Origin: a virus | Lineage: Duplodnaviria > Heunggongvirae > Uroviricota > Caudoviricetes | Strand: one strand, 5' to 3' | DNA length: 10,551 nt | Virus record (IMG/VR): IMGVR_UViG_2529292736_000008 | In this document: positions 1 to 9,582 of the stretch, in pieces | Numbering within the stretch: the stretch's first letter is position 1 | Layout of the letters: each line of letters opens with the position of its first letter | The notes under the pieces: model-generated | The model's input: the letters and a program-made list of their open reading frames with translations, nothing else | The model's database searches: none | Told to the model about the DNA's origin: nothing | Position numbers and translations under genes: made by a program

Positions 1-636
1 TGACTGGCGGTATAACGGCAGATGGTCTGCATATTTTCCGGTGACAACATGGGCCAGAAGCCCCGCTCCGGCATAACTGCGTGCAATGGGTTTTGAAGGT
101 ACTGGTGCCTGCACGATATGGTCGCACCGGCAACAGGCCAGTTTCGGACGTTGTGTTTCGATAACCTTAAAGGCGCTGCTGATAAGCTCCAGTTGCTCTG
201 ACACATCACATCCCAGAGAACTGAGTTCACCACCACAGGCAGGACAGCATTCCTCTTCCGGCAGGATAACCCGGGTTTCACGGGGAAGTGAGGCCGGTAA
301 CGGTTTACGGGCTGAAGACTGGCGCAGGGCGGATGGCAGTACCGGGTCATATTGCTCACCCAGCGTTTCCGCCATTTCTTCCTGAAGTGCGCTGATTCGC
401 TCCTGTGCTTCCTGTATCTGCCGTTCGGTTTTTGCACGAAGTTTTTCTGAGCTTTTACCGAACTGCATACGTTGCAGTTTCGCAACCAGCGCCTTCAGCC
501 GGTTGATTTCGGAAGCATAAGCCGCCACCCGCTGTGAGAGCAGGCGGTTGTATTCAGCCATCTGGCGTATGGTGTCCTGTTGCGTCTGCAACAGTGCCCG
601 CAGGCGGGCGTTCTCATGAGCAAGTGAGGTGTCCAT
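1..636 (-). CDS. tnpC: IS66-family transposase TnpC, N-terminal 212 codons (continues beyond window start)
   Basis: Minus-strand ATG at 636..634; translation MDTSLAHENARLRALLQTQQ... with leucine-zipper-like region and CxxC...CxxC zinc-finger motif (PACGGEL...CCRCDH), typical of IS66 TnpC; frame open to position 1. Not in the ORF track because it has no stop within the window. Confidence 0.85.
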   Translation of the reverse strand, partial: MDTSLAHENARLRALLQTQQDTIRQMAEYNRLLSQRVAAYASEINRLKALVAKLQRMQFGKSSEKLRAKTERQIQEAQERISALQEEMAETLGEQYDPVLPSALRQSSARKPLPASLPRETRVILPEEECCPACGGELSSLGCDVSEQLELISSAFKVIETQRPKLACCRCDHIVQAPVPSKPIARSYAGAGLLAHVVTGKYADHLPLYRQS

Positions 637-655
637 ATCCTCACTTTACAACGGG

Positions 656-1003
656 TTATATGCGGATTCCAGCGCGTTCCGTTCGTTTCGGGTGCTTCCA
701 GTTGATACCTTCAAGAAGCATGGATAACTGAGCCGGAGTAAGGTGCACCTTGCCGTCACGGGTGACTGGCCAGACGAAGCGGCCCCGCTCCAGGCGTTTG
801 GTGAAGAGGCACAGTCCGTCACTGTCAGCCCACAACACTTTTATCTGGTCACCCCGGCGTCCGCGGAAGATGAACAGGTGTCCGGAGAACGGGTCATCCT
901 TCAGGACGTTCTGAACTTTTGATGCCAGGCCGTTAAAGCCATTTCGCATATCGGTGATACCTGCAACCAGCCAGATACGCGAACCTGCAGGGAGAGATAT
1001 CAT
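656..1003 (-). CDS. tnpB: IS66-family accessory protein TnpB (115 aa)
   Basis: 115-aa ORF of characteristic IS66 Orf2 size and sequence (WLVAGITDMRNGFNGLA...), start overlapping the tnpA stop. Confidence 0.9.
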   Translation of the reverse strand: MISLPAGSRIWLVAGITDMRNGFNGLASKVQNVLKDDPFSGHLFIFRGRRGDQIKVLWADSDGLCLFTKRLERGRFVWPVTRDGKVHLTPAQLSMLLEGINWKHPKRTERAGIRI

Positions 1004-1680
1004 CAGTGGCTGCTCCCTTTTATTTCGCGGATAAGTGTCTGTAATAACGCCGGCGTCAGTTTACCTTTAAGCCTGAGAGTTCCGGCCGGCAGAACCAGCT
1101 CACAACACAGACTGTCGGACGGTGTATTTATCTGCTCTGGTTCCTGTGCGGGGGCCGGGATTTTATTATCCGGCTCCGGCGTTAACGTCACGGGAAGCAG
1201 TGCCGGCATATTTTTTCCGGAAGGCAGCAGGCCACCTTTCCGGTATTGATGGCGCCAGTTGAAGAGCTGGTTATCGTTGATTCCGTTTTCCCGGGCGATC
1301 TGCGCCACACAGGCTCCGGGCTGCAGTGACTGCTCCACTAAGGCGATTTTAAACTCATAAGGGAAGTTGGGCCGCCGGGGACGTTTTTTTACCACGGGGG
1401 CTTCGGATATAACGGTGCTTTCAGGACGTACGACTGGTACCGTGGAAAATTGTCCGTAAAGGCAGGCATCAAGTTCCTGCTCCGACATGCCTGCGGGCAA
1501 AGGCCACGAAAGGCCAGCTCTCCGAAAGCGCACGAACATACTACAAACTGTTGATTTTGGTACACCCAGGCGACGCCCGGCCACAACCCGGGGTAAATGT
1601 TCTTCAAAGTGAAGACGTAAAGCTTCAGTGATCCAGGTCCGGTGTTTCATACGATAGTGTCCATTAAAAATGATGGACAT
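1003..1680 (-). CDS. tnpA: IS66-family TnpA (Orf1), 225-aa ORF; true start may be an internal Met (e.g. 1488)
   Basis: C-terminal half carries the IS66 Orf1 HTH-like motif ([52 protein letters not shown]). N-terminal ~64 aa is an extra HTH-like extension ([19 protein letters not shown]). Confidence 0.75.
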
Positions 1681-1710
1681 TATTTTTGTAGAGCCGGAGG
1701 AAACAGACCA

Positions 1711-2505
1711 GACGGTTTAAATGAGCCGGTTACTGCCGGTATTGAGAACACCCCTGACGGCATGCAGAGTCAGGTGCTGCTGGCGGCGGACAGGATTGCG
1801 ATGGTTAATCCTGCGAATGGCAACACAAAACCGATGTTTGTTGGTCAGGGCGATCAGATATTCATGAACGACGTGTTCCTGAAACGCCTGACGGCCCCCA
1901 CCATTACCAGCGGTGGAAATCCACCGGCATTTTCCCTGACTCCGGACGGAAAGCTGACCGCTAAAAATGCGGATATCAGTGGCAGTGTGAATGCGAACGC
2001 CGGGACGCTCAACAATGTCACGGTAAATGAAAACTGTACGATTAAGGGCATGCTGGAGGCGACTCAGGTCAGAGGTGACTTCGTTAAAGCTGTATCCAAA
2101 TCATTCCCGAAACAGGCTGGTACGTGGGGTAACACGGAAACACCAAACGGGACGGTTACAGTCACCATAAGCGATGATCATAACTTTGACCGTCAAATCA
2201 TTATTCCGCCCATTATCTTTAACGGAATAGCGTATAGCGATCCGGGAAGTGGTAATAACCCGGGAGGTACAAGATACACGGGTTATGGTTTTGAAGTTCG
2301 CAAAAACGGTGTATTAATCGCATCCAGAGAAACTAAAGGGGCTATTCCCGGTAGCTACAGTGCGGTTATTGATATGCCGAGTGGCAGGGGAAGCGTCACT
2401 CTGGAGTTTAAGGTTTTCCATAAAGGCAATCAGTGGGCAGGTAATATCACCGACTGTACGGTGATTGTGACCAAAAAAGCCGCTTCCGGCATCAGTATTC
2501 GTTGA
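1711..2505 (+). pseudogene. J: Tail tip host-specificity protein J, C-terminal fragment (5' part removed by IS66-family insertion)
   Basis: Translation ...[81 protein letters not shown]... matches the recalled C-terminus of lambda gpJ. No J-like N-terminus; in-frame stop at 1618..1620 and IS sequence upstream. Start coordinate approximate. Confidence 0.8.
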
Positions 2506-2523
2506 AATTGTTATAACCCATAT

Positions 2524-2550
2524 AAGGGCACCAGAAATGGTGCCTTTTTT
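2524..2550 (+). terminator. Rho-independent terminator between J and lom
   Basis: Stem GGCACC (2527..2532), loop AGAAAT, stem GGTGCC (2539..2544), followed by TTTTTT (2545..2550). Confidence 0.6.
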
Positions 2551-2574
2551 ATTGCAGAAAAGCGAGAGGTAATT

Positions 2575-3175
2575 ATGCGTAAACTTTATGCCGCCATTTT
2601 GTCCGCAGCCATTTGTCTGGCCGTATCCGGTGCGCCTGCATGGGCATCTGAACATCAGTCCACGCTGAGCGCGGGGTATCTTCATGCCTTGACGAACGTT
2701 CCCGGCAGCGATGATCTTAACGGGATTAACGTGAAATACCGTTATGAGTTTACGGACACACTGGGGCTGGTGACGTCATTCAGCTATGCAGGAGACAAGA
2801 ATCGCCAGCTTACCCGTTACAGCGATACCCGCTGGCATGAAGATTCAGTGCGTAACCGCTGGTTCAGCGTGATGGCGGGGCCGTCTGTGCGCGTGAATGA
2901 ATGGTTCAGCGCGTATGCGATGGCGGGTATGGCTTACAGCCGTGTTTCGACTTTCTCCGGGGATTATCTCCGCGTAACTGACAACAAGGGGAAAACGCAC
3001 GACGTGCTGACCGGAAGTGATGACGGTCGCCACAGCAACACGTCTCTGGCGTGGGGGGGCTGGCGTGCAGTTTAACCCGACCGAATCCGTGGCCATTGAT
3101 ATTGCTTATGAAGGCTCCGGCAGTGGTGACTGGCGCACTGACGGTTTCATCGTGGGTGTCGGTTATAAATTCTGA
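2575..3175 (+). CDS. lom: Lom outer-membrane protein (Ail/Lom family); reading frame broken by a +1 frameshift in a G7 run (3053..3059). As written the ORF stops at 3075 (166 aa); the remaining 38 codons continue in the next frame to TGA at 3173..3175.
   Basis: N-terminal 160 aa match recalled lambda Lom ([37 protein letters not shown]...). After the G-run the +1 frame reads [38 protein letters not shown], the Lom C-terminus. RBS GAGAGG 5 nt upstream of ATG. Confidence 0.85.
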
Positions 3176-3200
3176 TTAGCCAGGTAACACAGTGTTATGA

Positions 3201-3229
3201 CAGCCCGCCGGTTCAGGCGGGCTTTTTGT
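3201..3229 (+). terminator. Rho-independent terminator downstream of lom
   Basis: Stem AGCCCGCC (3202..3209), loop GGTTCA, stem GGCGGGCT (3216..3223), then TTTTTGT. It overlaps the ATG at 3197 offered by the ORF track, so that start is rejected. Confidence 0.65.
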
Positions 3230-3238
3230 GGGGTGAAT

Positions 3239-6200
3239 ATGGCAGTAAAGATTTCAGGTGTACTGAAAGACGGCACAGGAAAACCGGTACAGAACTGCAC
3301 AATCCAGCTGAAAGCAAAACGTAACAGCACCACGGTGGTGGTGAACACGCTGGCCTCAGAAAATCCGGATGAAGCCGGGCGTTACAGCATGGACGTTGAG
3401 TACGGTCAGTACAGCGTTATTCTGTTGGTGGAAGGCTTCCCGCCGTCACATGCCGGGACCATCACCGTGTATGAAGATTCCCGACCCGGTACGCTGAATG
3501 ATTTTCTCGGTGCCATGACGGAGGATGATGCCCGTCCGGAGGCACTGCGCCGTTTTGAACTGATGGTGGAAGAGGTGGCGCGTAACGCGTCCGCAGTGGC
3601 ACAGAACACGGCAGCCGCGAAGAAGTCAGCCAGTGATGCCAGCACATCTGCCCGTGAGGCGGCAACCCATGCAACCGATGCTGCAGGCTCAGCACGTGCC
3701 GCCAGCACGTCAGCCGGACAGGCTGCATCATCTGCTCAGTCAGCATCTTCCAGCGCAGGAACGGCATCAACAAAGGCCAGTGAAGCATCGAAAAGTGCTG
3801 CTGCTGCAGAGTCCTCAAAAAGCGCGGCAGCTACCAGTGCCAGTGCCGCGAAAACGTCAGAAACGAATGCGGCAGCGTCACAAAAATCTGCAGCCACTTC
3901 TGCATCCGCCGCGACCACGAAGGCGTCAGAAGCTGCCACCTCAGCCCGGGATGCGGCGGCCTCAAAAGAGGCAGCGAAATCATCAGAAACGAACGCATCA
4001 TCAAGCGCCAGTAGTGCAGCTTCCTCGGCAACGGCGGCAGGAAATTCCGCGAAGGCGGCAAAGACGTCTGAGACAAACGCTAAGTCTTCTGAGACGGCAG
4101 CGGAACAGAGTGCCTCCGCAGCAGCAGACTCAAAAACAGCGGCTGCATCATCTGCCAGCGCCGCGTCAACAAGTGCCGGGCAGGCCTCAGCCAGTGCCAC
4201 CGCCGCCGGAAAGTCGGCAGAAAGTGCCGCATCGTCTGCTTCAACAGCCACAACGAAGGCTGGCGAAGCCACTGAACAGGCCAGCGCAGCAGCGAGTTCT
4301 GCTTCCGCAGCGAAGACATCCGAAACGAACGCGAAAGCGTCGGAAACCCGTGCAGAATCCTCAAAAACGGCTGCCGCATCGTCAGCCAGTTCGGCGGCGT
4401 CATCGGCATCATCTGCGTCTGCTTCAAAAGATGAGGCGACCAGACAAGCGTCAGCAGCGAAGAGCAGCGCCACGACGGCATCCACGAAGGCGACAGAGGC
4501 AGCTGGCAGTGCGACGGCGGCAGCACAGAGCAAAAGTACGGCGGAATCCGCGGCAACGCGCGCCGAGACAGCGGCAAAACGGGCAGAGGATATTGCATCC
4601 GCCGTGGCGCTTGAGGATGCGAGCACGACGAAAAAGGGGGTAGTACAGCTCAGCAGTGCGACCAACAGTACGTCTGAAACGCTGGCGGCAACGCCAAAGG
4701 CAGTAAAATCAGCCTATGACAATGCAGAGAAACGTCTGCAGAAAGACCAGAACGGCGCTGATATACCCGATAAGGGACACTTCCTGAACAACATTAACGC
4801 GGTCAGTAAAACAGACTTTGCTGATAAGCGCGGTATGCGTTATGTGCGGGTTAATGCTCCTGCAGGTGCAACATCTGGAAAATATTACCCTGTTGTTGTT
4901 ATGCGTTCTGCTGGCTCAGTAAGCGAACTGGCATCAAGGGTCATTATCACCACGGCAACGCGAACCGCAGGCGATCCGATGAATAACTGCGAGTTTAACG
5001 GATTTGTTATGCCTGGTGGCTGGACTGACAGGGGGCGTTATGCTTATGGCATGTTCTGGCAATATCAAAACAATGAACGAGCCATCCACTCAATAATGAT
5101 GAGTAATAAGGGCGATGATTTGCGCTCTGTGTTCTATGTTGATGGCGCTGCTTTCCCTGTTTTTGCGTTTATCGAAGATGGCCTGTCAATATCCGCACCT
5201 GGTGCTGATCTCGTTGTTAATGATACGACCTATAAGTTTGGGGCAACAAATCCGGCGACTGAATGTATCGCGGCGGACGTTGTCCTTGATTTTAAGAGTG
5301 GGCGTGGTTTTTATGAGTCTCATTCGTTAATCGTTAACGATAACTTGTCGTGCAAAAAACTTTTTGCCACAGACGAAATTGTAGCGCGTGGTGGTAATCA
5401 GATTCGAATGATAGGTGGGGAGTATGGTGCATTATGGCGTAATGATGGCGCTAAAACTTACCTGCTGCTTACCAATCAAGGTGATGTTTATGGTGGCTGG
5501 AATACATTAAGACCGTTTGCTATTGATAACGCAACCGGCGAACTGATTATTGGAACCAAACTGTCCGCAAGTCTGAACGGTAATGCATTAACAGCAACAA
5601 AGCTGCAAACGCCAAGACTGGTTTCTGGTGTTGAGTTTGATGGTTCCAAAGATATTACTTTAACCGCTGCGCATGTGGCTGCTTTTGCCAGAAGGGCAAC
5701 TGATACATATGCCGATGCGGATGGTGGCGTTCCCTGGAATGCCGAATCAGGCGCTTACAATGTCACCCGCTCTGGCGACAGCTATATTCTGGTTAACTTC
5801 TATACCGGAGTCGGAAGTTGCCGGACCCTGCAGATGAAGGCGCATTACAGAAATGGAGGTCTGTTCTACCGTTCCTCAAGAGATGGCTATGGTTTTGAGG
5901 AAGACTGGGCAGAAGTTTATACCTCGAAAAATCTTCCACCAGAAAGCTACCCAGTCGGCGCACCAATCCCGTGGCCATCAGATACCGTTCCGTCTGGCTA
6001 TGCCCTGATGCAGGGGCAGACTTTTGACAAATCTGCATACCCGAAACTTGCAGTGGCTTATCCGTCAGGCGTTATTCCTGATATGCGTGGCTGGACGATT
6101 AAGGGCAAACCTGCCAGTGGTCGTGCCGTATTGTCTCAGGAACAGGACGGCATTAAATCGCACACCCACAGCGCCAGCGCATCCAGTACGGATTTGGGTA

Positions 6201-6505
6201 CGAAAACCACATCGTCGTTTGATTACGGCACTAAATCCACGAATAACACCGGGGCTCATACGCATAGTCTGAGCGGCTCTACAAGCTCGGCTGGAGCACA
6301 CTCGCACGTTGATGGGCGCAGGTTTAATACAAGCACTTTTAAAGACACCTATCAGTATGGTTCTACAGCTGTCGGAAGTAACTCATACCAGGTACAAGGG
6401 GCGGTTGGTCTGGGCGTTGGTACGATGGCGAATACGAACTCTGCTGGCGCGCACACCCACTCACTGTCCGGCACTGCTGCAAGCGCAGGCGCACACGCAC
6501 ATTGA
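3239..6505 (+). CDS. stf: Side tail fibre protein Stf, 5' portion (1088 codons), truncated by IS629; stop codon TGA (6503..6505) is supplied by the IS629 terminus
   Basis: Starts [26 protein letters not shown]..., the conserved lambda Stf N-terminus (recalled). Long Ala/Ser/Thr-rich shaft, a central lower-GC module, then lambda-like C-terminal region GAPIPWPSD...GAHTHSLSG...AGAHAH. Confidence 0.85.
3590..4640 (+). repeat. Degenerate in-frame coding repeats (Ala/Ser/Thr-rich fibre shaft) inside stf
   Basis: Recurring units such as AAKTSETNA(K/A)...SAA(A/T)SAS at DNA ~3841, ~4050 and ~4310; GC-rich GCN/TCN codon runs. This composition explains the long spurious ORFs on other frames and strands. 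Confidence 0.5.
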
Positions 6506-6527
6506 ACCGCCCCGGGTTTCCTGGAGA
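6503..6527. repeat. IS629 terminal inverted repeat (stf-proximal end)
   Basis: TGAACCGCCCCGGGTTTCCTGGAGA; reverse complement of 7787..7811 is TGAACCGCCCCGGGAATCCTGGAGA. Confidence 0.85.
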
Positions 6528-6544
6528 GTGTTTTATCTGTGAAC

Positions 6545-7431
6545 TCAGGCTGCCAGATCATCGTTTCCGATGGAAGCATAATAAGCTTTTTCTGCTTCTG
6601 CCGGTGGGATATGGCCCAGCCTTTCCAGCAATCGTCGATTGTTATACCAGTCCACCCACGTGAGTGTGGCCAGCTCCACTTCTGTCCGGTTTTTCCAGCT
6701 CTTACGGTGTATTACCTCCGCTTTGTAAAGGCCATTGATGCTCTCCGCCATCGCGTTGTCATACGAGTCACCAGTACTTCCTGTTGATGCCAGTAATCCG
6801 GCTTCCTTAAGCCGCTGTGTGTAGGCCAGCGATACATACTGAGAACCTTTATCACTGTGATGGACTGTGCCGGACGGTCGACGGGCCCATAACGCCTGCT
6901 CCAGAGCATCCAGCACGAATGTCGTTTCCATAGACGATGAGACCCGCCACCCCACGATGTATCCGGCAAACACATCAATGATGAACGCCACATAGACGAC
7001 CCCCTGCCATGTGCTGACGTAAGTAAAATCAGCCACCCACAACTGGTCAGGACGTTCTGCCACAAACTGACGGTTTACGCGGTCGCCTGCGGCAACGGCT
7101 TTCCGGCTGACGGTAGTGCGGACCTTTTTACCCCGGAGAACACCGGCAAGTCCCATAACCGCCATGAGGCGCGCCACTGTACATCTGGCTACCCTGATTC
7201 CTTCCCGTAACAACTGACGCCAGACTTTACGCACACCGTATACCTGATGATTCCCATCGTATACGCGCAGTATCTCTTTCTTCAGCCAGTCATCGCGCTG
7301 CGCACGGGCACTGCGTTTATCAGGATGATGTCGCTGTTGCTGACAGTGTAATACGTTGACGGGGCAATATGTAGTTCACTGCATACCGGTCCGACCCCGT
7401 ACAGCTTACGCAGCTTATCCAGCAGTGGCAT
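6545..7431 (-). pseudogene. IS629 transposase OrfB (DDE integrase domain), frameshifted near 7345..7352; longest intact ORF is 6545..7234 (229 aa from GTG)
   Basis: ATG at 7431..7429 opens [28 protein letters not shown], which then runs into a stop. The following frame continues HCQQQRHHPDKRSARAQRDDWLKKEILRVYDGNHQVYGV-RKVWRQLL... through the DDE catalytic region (LWVADFTYV...HHSDKGSQY...YDNAMAES). The two halves are in different frames. Confidence 0.8.
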
Positions 7432-7757
7432 CACTTTTTCCAGAGGCGGTCGAACTCCGCCTTCGCAAAATAAGCGGAAGCCTGGCGAAGGATATCGTTA
7501 CTGCGGCGCAGTTCACGATTTTCACGTTCCAGCTCTTTCAGACGCTGACGTTCAGCGGTGGTGAGCCCGCCATCACCGCCTCCGGTATCCCGCTCATGCT
7601 GGCGTACCCAGACACGCAGAGTCTCCGGTGTACAGTCAATCTTTGGGGCAATGGAACAAATTGCCGCCCACTGTGAGTCATATTCGCCCTGACTTTCCAG
7701 AACCATACGAATCGCCCTCTGACGGACTTCGGGGGAAAAACGAGTATTTTTAGTCAT
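7431..7757 (-). CDS. IS629 transposase OrfA (108 aa, HTH)
   Basis: [30 protein letters not shown]..., IS3-family OrfA with C-terminal leucine-zipper-like region; stop TGA overlaps the orfB ATG (TGATG). Confidence 0.9.
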
Positions 7758-7786
7758 CCTGTTTACCTCTTTCTCAGGGAGTTTAG

Positions 7787-7811
7787 TCTCCAGGATTCCC
7801 GGGGCGGTTCA
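7787..7811. repeat. IS629 terminal inverted repeat (tfa-proximal end)
   Basis: See 6503..6527; 23/25 identity in inverted orientation. Confidence 0.85.
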
Positions 7812-7949
7812 CATACTGTCGGTATTGGTGCACACACGCACTCCGTTGCGATTGGTTCACATGGACACACCATCACCGTTAACGCTGCTGGTAACGCGGA
7901 AAACACCGTCAAAAACATTGCATTTAACTATATTGTGAGGCTTGCATAA
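7812..7949 (+). pseudogene. stf: stf 3' remnant (last 45 codons of side tail fibre gene, separated from the body by IS629)
   Basis: Reads (H)[44 protein letters not shown], matching the recalled lambda Stf C-terminus; stop TAA overlaps the tfa ATG (TAATG). Confidence 0.85.
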
Positions 7950-8533
7950 TGGCATTCAGAATGAGTGAACAAGCACGGACCATAAAAATTTATAATCTGC
8001 TGGCCGGAACTAATGAATTTATTGGTGAAGGTGACGCATATATTCCGCCTCATACAGGTCTGCCAGCAAACAGTACCGATATTGCACCACCAGATATTCC
8101 TGCTGGCTTTGTGGCTGTTTTCAACAGTGATGAGGCATCGTGGCATCTCGTTGAAGACCATCGGGGAAAAACGGTTTATGACGTAGCGTCAGGGGACGAG
8201 TTATTTATTTCTGAACTCGGTCCGTTACCGGAAAATGTTACCTGGTTATCGCCGGAAGGGGAGTTTCAGAAGTGGAACGGCACAGCCTGGGTGAAGGATA
8301 CGGAAGCAGAAAAAATGTTCCGGATCCGGGAGGCGGAAGAAACAAAAAACAACCTGATGCAGGTAGCCAGTGAGCATATTGCGCCGCTTCAGGATGCTGC
8401 AGATCTGGAAATTGCAACGGAGGAAGAAACCTCATTGCTGGAAGCCTGGAAAAAGTATCGGGTGTTGCTGAACCGTGTTGATACATCAACTGCACCTGAT
8501 ATTGAGTGGCCTACGAACCCTGTCAGGGAGTAA
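7949..8533 (+). CDS. tfa: Tail fibre assembly protein Tfa (194 aa), intact
   Basis: [54 protein letters not shown]...[13 protein letters not shown]; near-identical in length and sequence to recalled lambda Tfa; coupled to the stf stop. Confidence 0.9.
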
Positions 8534-8582
8534 TCATTGGGATTATGCCGCAGCACGTCTTAAGCAAGAACGTGCTGCGGTT
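8366..8582 (+). repeat. Direct repeat copy 1 (~217 bp): tfa 3' end (last ~55 codons) plus downstream hairpin
   Basis: Aligns by eye with 9415..9632 at roughly 85-90% identity, including exact blocks CGTGTTGATACATCAACTGCACCTGATATTGAGTGGCCT and CCTGTCAGGGAGTAATCATTGGGATTATGCCGCAG. Confidence 0.8.
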
Positions 8583-8587
8583 GGATG

Positions 8588-9256
8588 CTATTTTTTCCCT
8601 GAAGCGGAAAACATTACTACAGTACCTTGAACCTTGGTTTTAACATTCTCGAAATGCTCTGAGAGTATATGTGTTAAGCCTTCTTCGGAATCTTTTGTGT
8701 TTGAAAAGATGCCTTTCTGATTGTAAATGCGCATCAGTTTTTGACCGAAGCTATTGTGCACAACTCCATCGCCAAGAATTGTGGCTCCGTATAGAGTTCC
8801 ATCGTCAGTTAAGGCCTGCGCCGCATTGCGTATTACACAGCTTTTTGTAGATATATTTCCAGGCAGGCAGTGAAGAAGGTAAAACATGGAAATGGAATCA
8901 AATTGACCATGTAACGCCGCGGGATAAGGTTCAAAAACATCATGGCTAATTTTATGTTTAATTTTTGATTCCCCAGCCCTTGTAGATGCCGCGTTCAGGC
9001 TAGCTTCGTTCAAATCCATTAAAGATATCAGACTACTCTCAGGTACGTGAGTAAGGTAAAACCCAGTTCCAACACCAATATCCAGATGGTTGTTACCTAC
9101 ATGTTCCAGAAAGTGTGGAAGAAGGTGTTCCTTTGTAGGACATCCCCATGCAAGCCGATTTGATACTCCCAAAACCCACCAGTCATAAAGCTTTAGGGTA
9201 AGTGGTGTGTAAATTTTAGCCCCATCATCTGTGTTTTTTTTCATTGATTTCACCAT
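8588..9256 (-). CDS. Putative class I (Rossmann-fold) SAM-dependent methyltransferase, 222 aa; AT-rich cargo gene
   Basis: Motif I LDIGVGTGFY (hh[DE]hGxGxG), acidic end of beta-2 (ISLMDLN), motif II/III-like FDSISMFYLLHCLP and LTDDGTLYGATIL. No DPPY/NPPY or PC-Q DNA-methyltransferase motifs, so the substrate is unclear. GC content visibly lower than the flanking phage genes. Confidence 0.7.
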   Translation of the reverse strand: MVKSMKKNTDDGAKIYTPLTLKLYDWWVLGVSNRLAWGCPTKEHLLPHFLEHVGNNHLDIGVGTGFYLTHVPESSLISLMDLNEASLNAASTRAGESKIKHKISHDVFEPYPAALHGQFDSISMFYLLHCLPGNISTKSCVIRNAAQALTDDGTLYGATILGDGVVHNSFGQKLMRIYNQKGIFSNTKDSEEGLTHILSEHFENVKTKVQGTVVMFSASGKK

Positions 9257-9285
9257 GTTATAGTTTTATTTGTGAATTAAATCAA
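9257..9285 (-). promoter_or_regulatory. Candidate sigma70-like promoter upstream of the methyltransferase gene (-35 TTGATT, 17-bp spacer, -10 TATAAC)
   Basis: Minus-strand reading TTGATT(9285..9280)-N17-TATAAC(9262..9257) directly abutting the first ATG. If used, translation would start at the second in-frame ATG (9244..9242) on a near-leaderless mRNA. Motif match only. Confidence 0.3.
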
Positions 9286-9312
9286 TTATGGCGATGAATT
9301 ACAAGGGGTTAA

Positions 9313-9582
9313 ATGCTGCCGCAGCATAGCGATATTGAAATAGCCTGGTATGCTTCGATACAGCAGGAGCCGAATGGCTGGAAGACCGTCACCACACAGT
9401 TCTACATCCAGGAATTCAGTGAGTATATTGCGCCACTGCAGGATGCTGTAGATCTGGAAATCGCAACGGAGGAAGAAAGATCGTTGCTGGAGGCATGGAA
9501 TAAATATCGGGTATTGTTGAATCGTGTTGATACATCAACTGCACCTGATATTGAGTGGCCTGCAAATCCTGTCAGGGAGTAA
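9313..9582 (+). CDS. tfa' - chimeric small ORF (89 aa): unrelated 35-aa N-terminus fused to a duplicated Tfa C-terminal domain
   Basis: C-terminal 54 aa ([53 protein letters not shown]) parallel the Tfa C-terminus at 8372..8533. ATG preceded by AAGGGG 4 nt upstream. May be a remnant or an expressed mini-Tfa. Confidence 0.5.

Follow-up and report, generated by a model that had tools for sequence, protein, structure and literature searches.

A one-base length change in a G run interrupts the lom gene of a lambdoid prophage in a draft assembly

Is a run of seven G that breaks the reading frame of a prophage lom gene an error in the sequence, a genuine inactivating mutation, or a slippage-prone tract that switches a surface protein on and off? 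The question was raised by an earlier note on the DNA studied here, hereafter the window, which comprises the first 10.5 kb (10,551 nucleotides) of the WGS draft contig AIHJ01000020.1 (100.8 kb, GCA_000250395.2). The feature is an ordinary change of 1 bp in the length of a homopolymer, in a prophage gene that is well known, as recorded in a draft assembly.

Direct reading of the window places seven consecutive G at 3053-3059, the sole G/C run of six or more in the window. Since approximately 0.7 runs of G7 or longer are expected by chance in 10.5 kb, the run by itself is unremarkable. By translation, the recorded lom ORF extends from the ATG at 2575 to the TAA at 3073-3075 (166 aa), reading MRK...SLAWG up to codon 161 and then GWRAV before the stop, and the downstream part continues in the +1 frame to ...GVGYKF and a stop at 3173-3175. 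Deletion of one G from the run yields a 199-aa protein. The wild-type codons at the tract are TGG GGG GCT (Trp-Gly-Ala), to which the window adds one G; alignment with phages 434, Perceval, and 2B8 maps the extra base exactly to the G run, the tract being G6 in phage 434 and GGGGAG in both Perceval and 2B8. Translation and alignment thus bear out the earlier note in that the run shifts the frame of lom and the sequence resumes in the next frame, and one G fewer does restore a full-length Lom. Two of its counts had to be corrected, the intact part being 161 rather than 160 codons and the restored protein 199 rather than 206 aa; the figure of 206 aa applies to the Lom of lambda itself, a different and much more divergent allele.

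The interrupted gene is the standard 199-aa Ail/Lom gene for an eight-stranded outer-membrane barrel, well known in prophages. The repaired product shows 100% identity with WP_001230317.1 (from E. coli 214-4 and ETEC1720; annotated as "Ail/Lom family outer membrane beta-barrel protein"), differs by 2-3 residues from the Lom proteins of Perceval and 434, and matches the Pfam family Ail_Lom (PF06316) from end to end (positions 1-199 of 199, 398 bits at a cut-off of 23). The recorded 166-aa ORF scores 314 bits and covers only profile positions 1-161 of 199. Repaired Lom aligns to the solved structures of lambda Lom (9wso), OmpX (1qj8 and others), and Ail (3qra), and the position of the shift falls in the segment aligned to OmpX GFSYGAGLQFNP. 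The recorded ORF, which ends in ...AWGGWRAV, is without the region aligned to 'GAGLQFNP...GVGYRF' of OmpX and 'AGIQINP...GVGYKF' of lambda Lom; the complete eight-stranded barrel with its C-terminal aromatic residue, which signals outer-membrane assembly, is present in the repaired protein and absent from the recorded one. Given the topology that we assume for OmpX, the truncated Lom presumably falls short by roughly the last two and a half of the eight strands. A C-terminal end of the ...GVGYKF type is needed by outer-membrane barrels for assembly. Because the last barrel strands and the C-terminal Phe are missing, the recorded allele, judged from its sequence, should be null. As to the role of the protein, passages of PMC3342100 and references there describe Lom orthologues as expressed in lysogens and link them to adhesion and to the pathogenic profile of the lysogen.

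The lom gene forms a self-contained cassette (terminator, RBS, gene, and terminator) of a lambdoid prophage and has the setting known for lom in lambdoid phages, namely a place between J and stf, an RBS of its own, and a terminator on either side (Table 1). The prophage is visibly degraded, with J cut by an IS66-family element and stf by an IS3-family element. The former, which extends past the start of the contig and interrupts J at about 1734-1744, shares 99.6% identity with an ISCro1 copy of strain 08-00022; the J remnant consists of the C-terminal 257 codons, and the remainder of J may be on another contig. The stf gene is broken about 135 bp before its normal end and continues at 7810-7950, and positions 1831-6502 and 7810-9537 of the window are contiguous in strain TUM13867. 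Further downstream lie a tail fibre assembly gene (7949-8533), a gene for a class I SAM-dependent methyltransferase in reverse orientation (8588-9256), and a second, shorter tail fibre assembly ORF (9313-9582), a layout found in many E. coli prophages. The prophage adjoins an ompW remnant and yciE-yciF-yciG-trpA. At contig position 10829, just past the end of the window and between an ash-family gene and the ompW remnant, a rare-looking A6 stands in place of the A7 of three close reference genomes. Among complete E. coli genomes, none covers 80% of the window, the best reaching at most 69% at about 96-98% identity, and AIHJ01000020.1 itself is the only contig recorded with the exact 166-aa product.

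Table 1. Features of the lom region and the neighboring prophage genes, in coordinates of the window.
Feature	Position	Strand	Evidence or remark
IS66-family element, ISCro1-like (tnpA, tnpB, transposase start)	1..1740	-	Pfam IS66 domains; ISCro1 comparison
Gene J, C-terminal fragment (tail tip/host specificity)	1734..2505	+	Identical to 214-4 gpJ; Pfam Phage_Tail_Tip, Ig_GpJ_C
Intrinsic terminator 3' of J, 5' of lom	2524..2553 (hairpin 2524-2547)	+	Hairpin and T-run; annotated likewise in phage 434
lom RBS, GAGG	2566..2569	+	RBS annotated at homologous phage 434 position; sequence reading
lom codons 1-161, original frame	2575..3057	+	Translation; Pfam Ail_Lom profile positions 1-161 of 199
G7 run, frameshift site	3053..3059	+	Sequence reading; relatives' alignment; tract censuses
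lom codons 162-199 and TGA stop, now in +1 frame (last barrel strands and C-terminal ...GVGYKF)	3059..3175	+	Frame 2 translation
lom terminator	3202..3227 (hairpin 3202-3223, T5 3223-3227)	+	Hairpin and T-run; T6 in nearly all relatives
Side tail fibre gene stf	3239..6505	+	IS3-family element interrupts near 3' end (about 6502)
IS3-family insertion sequence	6500..7811	-	0 mismatches, 1 gap vs copy on plasmid p300709_97

The sequence and length of the tract in relatives were surveyed by scanning three public collections for the pattern CTCTGGCGTGG-N(2-7)-CTGGCGTGCAG. The 121 copies from IMG/VR comprise 65 with G6, 51 with GGGGAG, three with G5, and two others, with no G7. Metagenome contigs (120 copies) contain G6 in 76 cases and GGGGAG in 44, and neither G5, G7, nor any other variant, and the 11 copies from species-representative genomes divide into G6 (8), GGGGAG (2), and G5 (1), with no G7 and no others. 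Overall, G6 accounts for about 60% of the relatives and the interrupted GGGGAG for about 40%; the latter (TGG GGA GCT) is a synonymous GGG-to-GGA change, and the longest run that it leaves is 4. The G5 alleles, which carry a -1 frameshift, belong to three IMG/VR loci (L044, L055, and L101) and to the species representative Shigella flexneri SFBU0723 (L253); at these loci tract contractions, besides expansions, occur or are miscalled.

For complete E. coli genomes, an 81-bp probe centred on G7 identified 13,255 places in 4,639 records, and exact G7 was found in 9-10 of these records. Beyond the exact matches, one genome (H135) has G8 and another (H137) has G7 with a flanking mismatch. Off-length alleles constitute about 0.1% of the 13,255 copies, a figure that leaves G5 uncounted, as G5 alleles are not separable in this census. 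Among phage genomes, none of the 163 copies matches the G7 probe exactly. The lom tract is neither conserved nor commonly variable.

Thirteen complete genomes are listed with a tract longer than G6, of which 12 were established as G7 or G8 from an exact match or by reading the tract itself, and one (H138) is unread. The G7 alleles that were fetched lie in at least five different prophages and are all annotated as 'frameshifted' by PGAP, with a gene length of 601 bp vs 600 bp. They adjoin tccP/espJ in O55:H7 DEC5A (E3155_RS10220), nleG7 in O157:H7 ECP19-598 (JG531_RS10150) and G5295, btsS in 17B6-2, and potB in JP538; G7 was also found in LR-17-1 and Z1323PEC0008, and F6667 carries a G8 allele, likewise 'frameshifted' by PGAP. 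Five of the 13 long-tract genomes come from a single accession batch, CP0383xx-CP0384xx (CP038328, CP038346, CP038366, CP038394, and CP038414; loci L007, L263, L264, and L267); the long tract of CP038328 is known from an exact 81-bp match, and the others of the batch are G7 or G8 where read. This clustering, which looks like an effect of platform or batch rather than biology, hints at a technical contribution and suggests that calls at the lom tract are often technical. The run is a recurrent site either of indels or of miscalls.

Compared with E. coli 214-4, the 1,702 bases at 1734-3435 contain zero substitutions and two 1-bp homopolymer indels, namely G7 vs G6 and, in the lom terminator, T5 vs T6. 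The T5 at 3223-3227, at a distance of 170 bp from G7, is likewise a rare homopolymer indel: the terminator has T6 in 111 of 114 aligned loci and in all 176 other loci with its motif, and T5 is matched at 99% identity or more by only 13 of 4,314 complete-genome records. In complete genomes, no more than about 0.1% of the homologous copies have G7, and the same holds for T5. A further 1-bp deletion near 7348 (GTGG to GTG) lies in the IS3-family element, which is otherwise 100% identical to the p300709_97 copy, and splits its transposase gene orfB into ORFs of 50 and 229 aa; in complete E. coli genomes, none of 4,984 copies matches the 81-bp stretch with this deletion exactly over its full length. 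Private substitutions number four in the 6.6 kb covered by at least five relatives, all in the sparsely sampled stf, and the densely sampled part of the window has none. The four stf substitutions are located at 4779, 4855, 5282, and 5701 and are absent from all 23-27 aligned relatives. Homopolymer-prone sequencing typically yields rare single-base indels unaccompanied by substitutions; in natural divergence, substitutions outnumber indels roughly tenfold. From the rare, substitution-free 1-bp indels we infer that the extra G is probably a base-calling or assembly error of the WGS draft, in which the G6 of TGG GGG GCT would have been read as G7 by a homopolymer miscall. If the extra G is a miscall, the real lom gene is probably intact.

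Several observations speak against an error. The IS3 deletion lies in a 2-base run, which is atypical of homopolymer error. In the 2.5 kb of adjacent chromosome that were aligned, yciE, yciF, yciG, and trpA are free of indels, and the assembly is thus not riddled with frameshifts, which weakens the argument for error without eliminating it. Near the end of the prophage, some intergenic homopolymer differences are natural, since two A-run indels in the same alignment are shared with another strain and hence represent natural polymorphisms. Finally, the technical origin of the indels is deduced from the assembled sequence. A genuine mutation, in which unprogrammed replication slippage turned G6 into G7 and left lom a pseudogene in a defective prophage, comes second to error and is a possibility of lesser weight. 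The 166-aa product, deprived of the last strands and the C-terminal Phe, would then not be assembled in the outer membrane and would be degraded. A real lom pseudogene would fit a decaying prophage in which J and stf have already been cut by IS66 and an IS3-family element, respectively, and a truncated ORF that covers only part of the Ail_Lom profile. Complete genomes contain G7, plus one G8, in no fewer than five distinct prophages, and G5 alleles occur in IMG/VR and in one Shigella flexneri genome; under slippage, these alleles would make the run a recurrent indel site. On the other side, a pair of rare homopolymer indels but not one substitution in the 1.7 kb compared with 214-4 is unlikely under ordinary mutation unless the lineage was a mismatch-repair mutator, and there is no length variant in the 120 metagenome contigs and no exact G7 in the 163 phage-genome copies. 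Of the explanations offered in the earlier note, both error and inactivating mutation therefore stand, and the indel pattern leans to error.

The on/off switch, also offered there, found no support. We regard as very unlikely a contingency tract in which reversible slippage alternates between G6 (on) and G5 or G7 (off), the window representing an off state, even though independent prophages repeatedly have indels in precisely this run and Lom is a surface protein that passages of PMC3342100 and references there link to adhesion. Comparison of the G-run length across strains, which had been proposed as a check, gave length variants in about 0.1% of the 13,255 complete-E. coli copies and in 0 of the 120 metagenome contigs, and the tract is not maintained, GGGGAG replacing the pure run in 51/121, 44/120, and 2/11 copies from IMG/VR, metagenomes, and species representatives, respectively. 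In other bacteria, phase variation is frequent among such surface proteins, but real contingency loci have tens of percent of off-length copies; high switching rates are also a property of runs longer than G6, and mismatch repair is normally functional in E. coli. Neither maintenance of the tract among homologues nor frequent length polymorphism, the features of a contingency gene, was observed for lom, and a full-text literature search returned no paper on its phase variation. Phase variation is rejected because of the synonymous interruption in about 40% of copies together with the off-length fraction. A weaker version, in which the G6 of lom would be a real mutational hot spot of low rate that reversibly silences and restores a prophage adhesin in large gut populations, i.e., a rudimentary contingency locus of an enterobacterium with working mismatch repair and with G7 as one off state, likewise appears to us a long shot. 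Practically no credence is given to recoding as a source of full-length Lom from the G7 allele, whether as programmed +1 frameshifting on G GGG GGC or as slippage during transcription of the G run. If the tRNA-Gly that reads GGG re-paired by +1, from 3055-3057 to 3056-3058, the exact wild-type protein would be restored. However, the out-of-frame arrangement is not conserved, essentially all homologues being in frame; the shift site has no stop or rare codon, the next zero-frame codon being GGC and the first stop following 5 codons later; and no stimulatory RNA structure was detected in the 101 nt around and downstream of the run, whose folding does not surpass that of shuffled sequences (z = +1.0). 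Transcriptional slippage is known from long A or T runs. Both a conserved out-of-frame arrangement and a stimulator at the site, as in prfB-like +1 frameshift genes, are absent here, and programmed frameshifting is rejected on account of this lack of conservation, the absence of a stop or slow codon, and the folding result.

The G7 of lom is of little biological importance. A frameshift in a short homopolymer of a draft assembly should be taken for neither a pseudogene nor a switch until the reads have been checked, and population censuses of tract sequence and length provide a cheap way to dismiss a phase-variation hypothesis. If the mutation is real, one copy of an adhesin-like outer-membrane protein of prophage origin has been lost from the strain, as is common in prophage decay.

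The contingency loci of Neisseria, Haemophilus, Campylobacter, and Bordetella resemble lom in having poly-G within the coding region of a surface protein, where changes in length shift the frame; compared with them, lom has a wild-type run of only 6, interrupted in about 40% of copies and off-length in about 0.1%, without their conservation or length variability. The Ail/Lom pseudogenes annotated as 'frameshifted' by PGAP match the window exactly over 81 bp, their G7 lying at the same codon, but they belong to other prophages and other chromosomal sites, and these copies therefore represent independent events or independent errors. Since identical 'frameshifted' lom entries are already in public genome annotation, the feature of the window is not novel. 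Lambda's own 206-aa Lom (PDB 9wso) has only distant similarity to the window allele. Lambdoid Lom of the Ail/Lom/OmpX/PagC family (PF06316), notably in its 199-aa form WP_001230317.1 and as phage 434 lom, is alike after removal of one G, with a full profile match, and the phage 434 gene occupies the same J-stf position between the same flanking terminators; relative to WP_001230317.1 and 434 lom, the gene in the window differs in being recorded with G7 rather than G6 and, consequently, with a product truncated to 166 aa.
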